A stretch of DNA of 64,000 nucleotides from an uncultured Acidobacteriota bacterium (GTDB taxonomy: Bacteria; Acidobacteriota; Thermoanaerobaculia; UBA5066; Gp7-AA6): contig CAWALG010000030.1 of the NCBI GenBank assembly GCA_963782815.1, positions 164,284-228,283 of the forward strand, given 5' to 3'. Positions 26,162 to 51,736 of this stretch are shown here, in pieces. The notes under the pieces were generated by a model, which saw nothing but the letters and a program-made list of their open reading frames with translations, was not told where the DNA came from and ran no database searches. Each line of letters opens with the position of its first letter. The first letter of the stretch is position 1. The translations under genes and the position numbers were made by a program.

Positions 26162-26813
26162 CGTCCGTTCCGGCTCCGGGCGGATAGTCCTTGCCGTACT
26201 TGTTCTTGTGCGGGAGCGGCTTGTAGTTGGTCGCGTCCAGGCGGATCGCCAGCGGCGCGTCCGATCCGCCGGAGACCGTCACCGGCGTCTGCGTCTCTCC
26301 CGCCTCCTCGTGCCAGACCTTGACGACGTGGGCTCCCGGCGGGACGCCCTGGAACCGGAACGAGCCGTCCGGCCCGGTCACGGCGGCGAAGTCCGAGTCC
26401 ACGACCATCACGAAGCCGACCATCTGGGGGTGGATGTTGCAGTACACGCGCACGAGTCCCGGGTCTTCGAACTTCTTCTCTTTCGCGACGCCGCTCCGGT
26501 AGAGGCCGAGGTCGAACCGGTTGGCCCCCGAGACGGAGAAGACGTTGTGGTAGATCGCGTCCGCGTTGGGGAACTGCACTGTCGCGTTCTTGCGCACGAC
26601 GATGGCGCGCGGGGCGAATCGTTTCTGCTCGCTCTTCATCTCGCCCTGCGCCGCCGGGCTGCCGCCGCCGTGAAGGCGCTCGATCCAGACGATTGCGTTG
26701 GCCGCATCCGGCGCGGGAACACCCGCCCGGACGAGCACGACGCGGCCTTCGACCACGCCCCCGGCCGGTGGCGGAGAGAGCGCGAGGAGAAGGGAAAAGC
26801 AGAGCGCGATCAT
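26148..26813 (-). CDS. Secreted cupredoxin-like protein with C-terminal carboxypeptidase-regulatory-like (prealbumin-fold) segment
   Basis: Signal peptide; FPNADAIYHNVFS and YCNIHPQM give the His...Cys-x2-His-x2-Met type-1 copper pattern; GPDGSFRFQGVPPG. Confidence 0.7.
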   Translation of the reverse strand: MIALCFSLLLALSPPPAGGVVEGRVVLVRAGVPAPDAANAIVWIERLHGGGSPAAQGEMKSEQKRFAPRAIVVRKNATVQFPNADAIYHNVFSVSGANRFDLGLYRSGVAKEKKFEDPGLVRVYCNIHPQMVGFVMVVDSDFAAVTGPDGSFRFQGVPPGAHVVKVWHEEAGETQTPVTVSGGSDAPLAIRLDATNYKPLPHKNKYGKDYPPGAGTDDERY

Positions 26814-26897
26814 CGGGTCCTGGCCTGAAAAAATCATAGCATCCGGCCTTCGGGAGCCGTTTCCGCATGCCGGGTTAAGATCAGGCGGGAGGAAGCG

Positions 26898-27122
26898 ATG
26901 ACCGCCGAACCCGTGGAGATCTTCGGAAAGGACACCTGACCCTACACGACCGCGGCCCGTGAGGACTACGCGAAGAGGAAAATTCCCTTCACCTACATCA
27001 ACGTCAAGGACGACAAGAAGGAGCTGGACCGGATGGTCCGCCTCTCCGGAGAGCGCCGTGTCCCCGTCATCGTCGAAGGCGGCAAGGTCACTATCGGCTT
27101 CGGCGGAACGTGAGGGGTGTAG
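26898..27122 (+). CDS. Glutaredoxin-like UXX-star-type selenoprotein, 74 aa with two in-frame UGA (Sec) codons
   Basis: MTAEPVEIFGKDT[U]PYTTAAREDYAKRKIPFTYINVKDDKKELDRMVRLSGERRVPVIVEGGKVTIGFGGT[U]GV*; TGA at 26937 and 27111, TAG at 27120; GGAGG RBS; absent from the ORF track. Confidence 0.85.
26951..26972 (+). promoter_or_regulatory. Candidate bacterial SECIS for the first UGA
   Basis: CGCG/CGCG lower stem, CC/GG upper stem, G-initial GUGA loop 19 nt after the UGA; folded by eye. Confidence 0.5.
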
Positions 27123-27142
27123 GCGCCCCGTCGGGGCGCCTA
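27120..27142 (+). promoter_or_regulatory. Candidate bacterial SECIS for the second UGA
   Basis: Perfect 10-bp stem TAGGCGCCCC/GGGGCGCCTA with G-initial loop GTC 16 nt after the UGA; no U-tract follows. Confidence 0.6.
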
Positions 27143-27147
27143 TCGGT

Positions 27148-27192
27148 GATTGGTGATTTCCGCGCTCTGGTCCAATCACAAATCACAAATCG
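27148..27192. repeat. Inverted heptamer block (GTGATT arms / AATCACA arms)
   Basis: gtgattggtgattt ... ccaatcacaaatcacaaatc. Confidence 0.7.
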
Positions 27193-27262
27193 AAACCTGA
27201 AGGAAATCCCTTCCTGTAGAGGCTGGGCCGTGCTAGAAAGCGCCTAACTCACTGGAGGCAAG

Positions 27263-29278
27263 ATGGCACAGGAGTCCGGCCAGGAGTTCCGTCCGTACAT
27301 CAGCTCGGAGCAGAAGGTCGCCGAGTTCACGCCGAAGGCGATCGTGCTCGGAGTTCTCTTCGGCATTCTGTTCGGCGCGGCCACGGTCTATCTCGCGCTG
27401 CGGGCGGGGTTGACGGTCTCGGCCTCCGTGCCGATCGCGGTGCTCGCGATCGCCGTTTTCAAGAAGCTCGGCAAATCCACGATCCTCGAGAACAACATCG
27501 TGCAGACGATCGGCTCGGCCGGAGAGTCGGTCGCGGCGGGAACCGTCTTCACCGTCCCGGCCCTGCTCTTCCTGGCCGGCGGCGGGGACTACTTCCAGTA
27601 CGTCCAGATTACGATCCTCGCGATCTTCGGCGGCGTGCTCGGCGTCCTCTTCATGGTGCCGCTGCGCCGCGCGCTCATCGTCAAGGAGCATGGCAAGCTC
27701 CCGTATCCGGAGGGAACCGCATGCGCCGACGTGCTGATCGCCGGCGAGAAGGGGGGCGACCTCGCCCGGATGGTCTTTGCCGGCGTCGGCGCGTCGCTTC
27801 TCTACAAGTTCCTCTACGGAGTCCTGGGCCTCTGGAACGAGACGGCCACCTGGTTTCGGACCAAGAAGGAGTCGGTCTATCCGGCCGCGACCCTGAACGT
27901 GGATGTGACGCCCGAGTACCTGGGACTGGGTTACATCATCGGGCCGCGGATCGCCGGCGAGCTCTTCTCGGGAGGCCTGCTCGCCTGGATGGCTCTGATC
28001 CCGCTCATCGCCATCTTCGTGCCGGAGACCCGCCTCGTGGACGACCTGACCAAGCTCGGGTTCTCCGAGGGGTGGCGCAACGGACACTCCTACGCCGAGT
28101 GGATCTACCGGGCCTACATCCGCTACATCGGAGCCGGGGCGGTGGCGTGCGCGGGAGTCATGACCCTCATCAAGTCGCTGCCCACGATCGTCGGGGCCTT
28201 CCGCGAGTCGGTCAAGAGCTTCGGCGAGGGCCGGCGGGGAGCCGTGAAGAAACGGACCGAGGACGACCTCGGCATGGGCATCGTCATCATCGGATCGCTC
28301 ATCCTGGTGCTGCTCCTCGCCGTGATCCCCAAGTTTCCCCACGGCCCATTCCCCCAGTCGCTCCTGATGTCGCTCCTGATCGTGATCTTCGGCTTCTTCT
28401 TCGTGACGGTGTCCTCGCGCATCGTCGGCATCATCGGGACTTCCTCCAACCCGATCTCCGGAATGACGATCGCCACGCTCATGGCGACCTGCATCGTGTT
28501 CGTCGTGATCGGCTGGAAGGGGGACGTCTATCAGGCTGTCGCGCTTTCCGTCGGCGCGATCGTGTGCGTGGCAGCGGCCAATGCCGGCGCGACCTCCCAG
28601 GACCTGAAGACCGGCTTCCTCGTGGGCGCCACGCCCAAGCTGCAGCAGTGGGGCTTCATCATCGGGGTCGTGACGTCCGCGTTCGTGATCGCCATCACCC
28701 TCTTCGTCCTGGACCAGACCTACAAGGGGACCGAGCTGCACGGCATCGGGGGCCCGAAGCTCGCCGCGCCGCAGGCCACTCTCATGGCCACGATCATCAA
28801 GGGACTGCTCGCGCAGAACCTTCCGTGGGCGCCGGTTCTCGTCGGCGTCTTCCTCGCCTTCATGGCGCAGCTGGCCGGAGCGCACGCGCTCTCCTGGGCT
28901 GTCGGCGCCTACCTCCCGGTGTCCACGACCGCGCCAATCTGGGTCGGCGGAATGATGAAGCACCTCGTCGATTCGATGAGGAAAAAGAAGGAAGGGGTCG
29001 CCGGAGAGGAGTCGGAGCTCTCCTCCGGGATGCTCTATTCGACGGGTCTCGTCGCGGGCGGCTCGCTCGGCGGCGTGCTGATCGCTTTCGTCGCTTTCTT
29101 TGGCGACCGGGTCTTGAGGATGGAGAAGCCGACGCTCCTGGAGAAGCTGGACCTGGGATCCAAGTTCTTCCCCGACTTCAAGAACGGTCTGATCAGCGGC
29201 AACGTCCTCTGCGCCGTCGTCTTCGCCGTCCTCTGCGTCCTCCTCGTCAAGAACGCGAGAAGGAAGCTCGAAGCGTAG
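27263..29278 (+). CDS. OPT-family oligopeptide transporter
   Basis: [77 protein letters not shown]. Confidence 0.93.
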
Positions 29279-51700: not shown

Positions 51701-51736
51701 TGAGAATTGGTGATTCGTGATCGGTGATTTGTGATC
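51700..51736 (+). repeat. GTGATT-like heptamer tandem repeat
   Basis: gatgagaattggtgattcgtgatcggtgatttgtgatc. Confidence 0.65.

Follow-up and report, generated by a model that had tools for sequence, protein, structure and literature searches.

The question raised by this locus is whether a short reading frame that is interrupted twice by TGA can be a functional gene, and what the two TGA codons would then stand for. The locus lies in a stretch of 64,000 nucleotides from an uncultured Acidobacteriota bacterium of the Thermoanaerobaculia, and we refer to this whole stretch as the window. An earlier note on this DNA had described a frame led by a ribosome-binding site, with one TGA at 26937 in the context DT-U-PYT and a second at 27111 in the context GGT-U-GV-stop, and we find these coordinates and motifs to be exact. 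The two codons, TGA 26937-26939 and TGA 27111-27113, are the sole interruptions of the frame 26898-27122, whose 3' end reads TGA 27111, GGG, GTG and TAG in both the sequence and its translation. With TGA translated as U, the product is MTAEPVEIFGKDTUPYTTAAREDYAKRKIPFTYINVKDDKKELDRMVRLSGERRVPVIVEGGKVTIGFGGTUGV, followed by the stop. The gene consists of the following parts:

26888-26892, + strand: ribosome-binding site GGAGG, ending 5 nt before the ATG, read from the sequence
26898-27122, + strand: coding sequence of a 74-residue glutaredoxin-fold selenoprotein (UXX-star family 1), translated with TGA as U
26898-26900, + strand: start codon ATG
26937-26939, + strand: first proposed Sec codon TGA (U14, in DT-U-PYT), aligned with the nucleophilic Cys of the E. 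coli Grx3 motif CPYC
27111-27113, + strand: second proposed Sec codon TGA (U72, in GGT-U-GV), the third residue counted from the C-terminus
27120-27122, + strand: stop codon TAG, part of the coding span

None of the open reading frames in the table-11 list of the window spans this frame. The gene had been called unannotated, which may apply to the gene track of the record and does not hold for the family, which is already catalogued (NF041114, PMC13188914). Our best explanation, in which we have high confidence, is that 26898-27122 is a functional gene of UXX-star family 1 in which both in-frame UGA codons are read as selenocysteine.

The family membership follows from profile scoring, for which Cys was substituted for Sec in the protein. 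The model NF041114 "UXX-star selenoprotein family 1" gives 115.5 bits against a cut-off of 72 (residues 6-74 on profile positions 1-70 of 70) and the umbrella model NF041212 gives 99.9 bits with a cut-off of 66. A six-frame search of the whole genome with NF041114 returns exactly one locus, at 101 bits and with two TGA codons inside. The Pfam Glutaredoxin family PF00462 is matched with E = 6e-11, and the more specific models for Grx3 (TIGR02181, 36.7 bits) and NrdH (TIGR02194, 26.9 bits) stay below their cut-offs of 90 and 85.75. The dithiol motif CPYC or CVQC is absent from the 74-residue protein, which carries UPYT instead.

The earlier note had placed the first TGA at the redox position of a glutaredoxin fold, and the Pfam match, the AlphaFold2 model and the Foldseek search agree with this. 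In the structure-sequence alignment the best matches are E. coli Grx3 (3GRX/1FOV) and archaeal and clostridial glutaredoxins, with U14-P-Y-T lying over C-P-Y-C. The AlphaFold2 model, built on an alignment of 78 homologues, has a mean pLDDT of 83.3 and a strand-helix-strand-helix-strand-strand topology, in which a helix (residues 15-26) follows directly on U14 and the C-terminal helix is absent. Foldseek groups the model with glutaredoxins at TM values of about 0.73-0.78 (top matches 3ic4, 7c10 and 3grx). Across the 78 aligned sequences U/C14, P15 and T17 are invariant.

Neither the family nor its two-Sec form is new. Table 1 of a 2026 review lists it as UxxT with 2 Sec, with WP_258313609.1 as an example, and credits another name, 'distant Grx-like protein 1', to Zhang and Gladyshev 2008 (PMC13188914). 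The text of Zhang and Gladyshev 2008 (PMC2398784) contains no 'distant Grx' phrase and nothing specific to UXX-star family 1, and the 2026 review was the only match of a literature text search on UXX-star (PMC13188914). Homologues in Acidobacteriota and Vicinamibacterales MAGs are already named "UXX-star selenoprotein family 1" in NCBI records. Because of the curated NCBI model, these named homologues and the entry in Table 1, we regard the two-Sec form as known before, and the gene at 26898-27122 is an ordinary member of the family.

A survey with NF041114 found the gene in 54 of 81 related genomes and in 16 of 21 genera, with two in-frame TGA codons in nearly all cases, and a further scan with one genome per species added 80 loci. 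Judged by record titles, the nearest relatives belong to the Thermoanaerobaculia (Acidobacteriota), and more distant members are found in Vicinamibacterales, Methylomirabilota, Binatia and Desulfobacterota-type MAGs. The codons at both sites were tallied over 109 homologous loci:

TGA at site 14, TGA at site 72: 89 loci
TGC or TGT at site 14, TGA at site 72: 18 loci (17 by script, plus L125)
TGA at site 14, GGA at site 72: 2 loci (L045 and L057, one sequence)

For L125 the script had scored TGC/ACG, an artefact of an extra residue, and the true state is Cys/TGA. Site 14 therefore holds TGA in 91 of the 109 loci and TGC or TGT in the other 18, never a Trp codon; judged from the aligned codons, this is the classical exchange of Sec and Cys. 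Site 72 holds TGA in 107 loci, and a Cys codon at this site occurs in none of the 109. The comparison of homologues that had been suggested as a check thus finds position 14 occupied by Sec or Cys and position 72 by TGA, and the conditions named as refuting the earlier reading were all decided in its favour. The claim of two Sec residues within 74 amino acids is supported by the 89 TGA/TGA loci and by the listing of the family with 2 Sec. The GGA (Gly) codon at site 72, next to TGA at site 14, is confined to the L045/L057 sequence (QHVV01000049.1, Acidobacteria bacterium gp7 AA6), and means either that the tail Sec was lost in nature or that the assembly is in error here.

The importance of the locus is mainly one of annotation. 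A real and conserved selenoprotein gene is invisible to gene callers that take every TGA as a stop, and its nearest relatives are publicly stored in mistranslated or truncated form. In the public protein collection these relatives (P0001, P0002 and others) carry W at both TGA positions, end in ...GGTW and are without their last two residues, while distant relatives with Cys at position 14 are stored cut off at ...GGT. The public translations of UXX-star family 1 are systematically wrong at the C-terminus. What is known of the family is left unchanged by our results.

If both codons are read as selenocysteine, each should be followed by a SECIS element. Bacterial SECIS (bSECIS) rules ask for a loop of 3-9 nt with a G in the first two loop positions, a spacing of 16-37 nt and a minimum free energy of -7.5 kcal/mol or lower (PMC13188914). 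A SECIS-like hairpin had been claimed after each UGA. The claim stands for the second, which is strong, conserved and spaced by 16 nt; the first, at 19 nt, is present and weak. The region behind UGA-14 contains two nested features:

26952-26969, + strand: RNA-constrained block GCG GCC CGU GAG GAC UAC after UGA-14, from the freezing of synonymous sites and the RNAalifold consensus
26954-26967, + strand: small candidate SECIS hairpin of UGA-14, with a GUGA loop at 26959-26962, 19 nt past the UGA

The hairpin with the GUGA loop is the RNAalifold consensus of 74 Sec-form homologues. Numbered from the U of the UGA, its pairs are G18-U31, G19-C30, C21-G28 and C22-G27, that is 2+2 bp around a C.A mismatch, and its energy is -1.9 to -5.6 kcal/mol depending on how far the stem is extended. 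Its spacing and loop agree with the bSECIS rules and its energy falls short of -7.5 kcal/mol. The G and U fall on nt 23 and 24, which in the SECIS of E. coli fdhF are occupied by the critical bases of the loop. When the single sequence is folded with RNAfold, a rival structure of -7.3 kcal/mol appears, in which a 9-nt loop starts 9 nt past UGA-14, outside the bSECIS rules for spacing and loop. Neither of the two folds shows any compensatory double change among the homologues, and neither is proven, because the variation in both is almost wholly invariant or one-sided.

The third codon positions are more informative. The Ala codon at +6 is GCC in all 75 distinct Sec forms and in 6 of 18 Cys forms, where GCG (9), GCT (2) and GCA (1) also occur. 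The Arg codon at +7 is CGT in 71 of the 75 Sec forms (CGG in the other 4) and in 4 of 16 Cys forms, next to CGC (6), CGA (4) and CGG (2); elsewhere in the homologue genes CGT is rarely used for Arg. The contrast between Sec and Cys forms gives Fisher p values of 4e-11 for Ala +6 and 9e-9 for Arg +7, both uncorrected for shared ancestry. The four Cys forms with GCC CGT all fall into one subgroup, which also holds the Sec form L111, and they may be recent conversions. This codon pattern points clearly to a constraint at the RNA level after UGA-14 that is limited to Sec forms. The model with canonical spacing explains the frozen third positions better than the fold with the 9-nt loop, since it has C21-G28 and G18-U31 paired and U24 in the loop. 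Support for the first hairpin thus comes from the frozen synonymous sites, and not from folding energy or compensatory changes.

We consider it rather unlikely, if worth keeping in mind, that the decoding of UGA-14 relies on a SECIS not covered by the standard bacterial model, be it the minimal GUGA hairpin or the 9-nt-spaced one. Such decoding might receive help from the strong SECIS, which lies only 174 nt further along this very short mRNA. If this were true, a widespread gene with two Sec codons would offer a compact natural test of the minimal RNA structure that SelB needs. The contrast in codons between Sec forms and Cys forms is in any case a clean and reusable signature for locating weak SECIS elements inside coding sequences. 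On the preferred reading, in which both UGA codons are decoded as selenocysteine, UGA-14 would be served by the small element within the coding sequence, with G23-U24 in its tetraloop.

The hairpin of UGA-72 is of a different kind:

27119-27143, + strand: SECIS hairpin of UGA-72 predicted by RNAfold, mostly in the 3' UTR, with the stop codon inside its stem

Its G+C-rich stem of 11 bp (27119-27129 with 27133-27143) carries a GUC loop (27130-27132) that starts 16 nt past UGA-72, and its predicted energy is about -21.8 kcal/mol (RNAfold). It agrees with the bSECIS rules in every point and is conserved. For the comparison with homologues we defined a test hairpin as one whose stem has 6 bp or more without a mismatch, whose loop has 3-6 nt and a G in its first two positions, and whose loop begins 14-24 nt past the UGA. 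This hairpin is found in 72 of 90 distinct homologues, compared with 8.6% of dinucleotide shuffles, and in 4 of 89 cases in a control stretch 60 nt further downstream. The loops of the 72 hairpins are GUC, GGUC, GGC, GGA and GGU, and the loop-proximal arm of the stem occurs in 36 different sequences. With 26800-27300 as query, Rfam gave no match at E <= 10.

It would be conceivable that only UGA-14 encodes Sec and that UGA-72 is a true stop, ending a protein of 71 residues, with the hairpin acting as a stabilising or terminator stem. The overlap of the hairpin with the gene end does resemble a terminator, and the stored public relatives end at GGT or GGTW. However, none of the 72 homologue hairpins is followed by a T-run, and our scan for promoters and terminators found no terminator at the gene end (nor a sigma-70-like promoter). 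The loops begin 14-23 nt from the UGA and start with G, GG or GU as bSECIS requires, so the 3' hairpin fits the bacterial SECIS model and not an intrinsic terminator. The coding sequence argues in the same direction. In all 91 distinct genes UGA-72 is followed by exactly two sense codons and then a stop, and the dipeptide of this tail is G-V in 73 of them, E-V in 10 and A-V in 5. Conservation of Gly and Val goes together with variable third codon positions, four synonymous codons being in use for each (GGG, GGC, GGA and GGT; GTG, GTC, GTT and GTA). A tail of two fixed codons with synonymous variation indicates a translated sequence under purifying selection, and therefore UGA-72 is not a real stop. 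The curated family model also covers the U-x-x end, and the earlier assignment to a UXX-star type ending in U-x-x-stop agrees with a score above the NF041114 cut-off and with the same layout in 91 of 91 distinct homologues. We therefore regard a stop at UGA-72 as very improbable and keep to the reading of both UGA codons as Sec. The codon that terminates the frame after U-x-x is TAG in the window and TGA in 43 of the 91 distinct homologues. In those 43, the earlier of two UGA codons only 6 nt apart would be read as Sec and the later one as stop.

That the locus is a decayed glutaredoxin pseudogene, or that its TGA codons are assembly or sequencing errors for TGC or TGT, might be suggested by the lack of a table-11 frame and by a draft genome in 41 contigs, but this hardly merits consideration, since 89 of 109 loci, assembled independently and drawn from many species, have TGA at both sites, the protein is strongly conserved and free of frameshifts, the ribosome-binding site is intact and purifying selection acts at the codon level along the whole frame.

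The remaining question is whether the organism is able to decode selenocysteine at all, as had been supposed. Its draft assembly of 4.06 Mb contains selA (453.5 bits), selB (310 bits, with the C-terminal domain also found), selD (364.6 bits) and two genes for tRNA-Sec(UCA), and thus carries the full bacterial system for Sec decoding. The selD gene contains one in-frame TGA, at the canonical position of the G-U-A-C-K active site.

G000:C6:28402-29364 (locus L010): selD with Sec-TGA
G000:C22:366-459 and G000:C33:57828-57921 (loci L014 and L015): two tRNA-Sec(UCA) genes

The selD gene is a second, independent selenoprotein gene of the same genome. Two copies of selC are unusual in a bacterium. 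They differ by 1 base and have unlike flanks, each adjoining tRNA-Ala(GGC) genes, and the pair could also reflect strain mixing in the MAG. Among the 81 related genomes 73 have selA, and the assemblies of most others are highly fragmented. A genome-wide reassignment of TGA to Trp or Gly, which would place W or G at both sites, might be read from the W in the stored relatives and from the single relative with GGA at site 72, but TGA is the stop of 72 of the 95 long open frames in the window, which excludes it. The Cys and never Trp at site 14 of relatives and the complete Sec system also count against reassignment, the stored W are best read as translation artefacts in entries that are also without their last two residues, and we attach practically no weight to this reading.

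We propose that both UGA codons would be read as selenocysteine by SelB and tRNA-Sec, with UGA-72 served by the strong G+C-rich hairpin overlapping the stop codon and continuing into the 3' UTR. In the protein, U14 would open helix 1 at its N-terminus, where CPYC has the attacking Cys, and Thr17 would take the position of the resolving Cys. U72 would be carried by a tail, flexible and rich in Gly, that stands where Grx has its GG-C-DD motif and last helix. Being on a flexible tail, U72 may be the second redox partner and swing onto U14 to form an intramolecular diselenide, so that the protein would amount to a mono-"thiol" Grx with the resolving residue relocated to its tail. Alternatively, both selenols might jointly bind a soft metal or metalloid, and a role as metal ligands has been raised for UXX-star proteins in the 2026 review (PMC13188914). 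Both roles are plausible inferences, and the tail in the AlphaFold2 model is of low confidence (mean pLDDT of 63 for residues 71-74).

The genomic neighbourhood might be expected to give a hint of function. Downstream lies a transporter gene:

27263-29278: OPT-family transporter gene (Pfam PF03169)

It starts 140 nt after the selenoprotein gene, with no terminator found in the gap, and an OPT gene adjoins the small gene in 73 of 109 loci. On the upstream side a HAMP-domain gene is kept alongside in 66 loci, and an upstream Ser/Thr-kinase gene is also conserved. In L023, L027 and L029 the HAMP-domain and OPT genes have swapped sides relative to the small gene, which indicates that the small gene alone was inverted between the same flanks; L028 has the same divergent OPT gene and no HAMP match in its flank. 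Members outside the Thermoanaerobaculia have different neighbours and no linkage to OPT. Because of the co-conserved HAMP gene, the inversion of the small gene and the other neighbours outside this class, we read the OPT linkage as synteny within a clade and have set aside a functional coupling to the transporter.

Directly after the 3' SECIS hairpin, at 27146-27186 of the window, we observed an inverted repeat, GTGATTGGTGATT ... AATCACAAATCAC. Similar words of the form GATTKGTGATT stand behind the gene in the related loci L030, L032, L034 and L051. A tandem pair is found at 51717-51736, and the pattern has 4 matches in the window where 0.04 are expected. The inverted repeat may serve as a regulator site in front of the OPT gene, or it may itself be a small repeat element.

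A comparison with known systems places the protein among glutaredoxin-like selenoproteins with a Sec near the C-terminus. The UXX-star families 2 and 3 and the HUGP/GUXX-star fusion are likewise glutaredoxin-like and end in U-x-x-stop. The scores with NF041211, NF047338 and NF045501 (57.3, 49.7 and 57.5 bits) are all below the cut-offs (100, 97 and 325), and these are sister families and not the family of this locus. Mammalian thioredoxin reductase is a flavoprotein with a C-terminal G-C-U-G tail, and uses the eukaryotic SECIS and decoding factors. Like our protein it has its Sec close to the C-terminus, with few residues following, in a flexible tail rich in Gly, and this closeness is why the SECIS has to be placed beyond the stop codon, in the 3' UTR. 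The folds are unrelated, and the reductase has a Cys-Sec pair in its tail, whereas the partner of U72 would presumably be U14 on the body of the protein.

With E. coli Grx3 (3GRX/1FOV) the protein shares the thioredoxin/glutaredoxin fold (TM 0.76, rmsd 1.6 A over 64 columns), an active-site residue at the start of helix 1, the conserved C-P-Y, and a V-P loop (cis-Pro) before strand 3. It differs from Grx3 in having Sec for Cys and Thr for the resolving Cys (UPYT versus CPYC), and in the GFGGT-U-GV-stop end that replaces the GG-C-DD motif and the C-terminal helix. From UXX-star family 1 (NF041114) we find no difference of substance. The locus is a member, scoring above the cut-off, with about 70 residues, [U/C]-P-Y-T, G-F-G-G-T-U-x-x-stop and two Sec. 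What our analysis adds to the family are the statistics of the 3' SECIS, the synonymous sites after UGA-14 that are frozen in Sec forms only, and the conserved place of the gene between HAMP-domain and OPT genes in the Thermoanaerobaculia.
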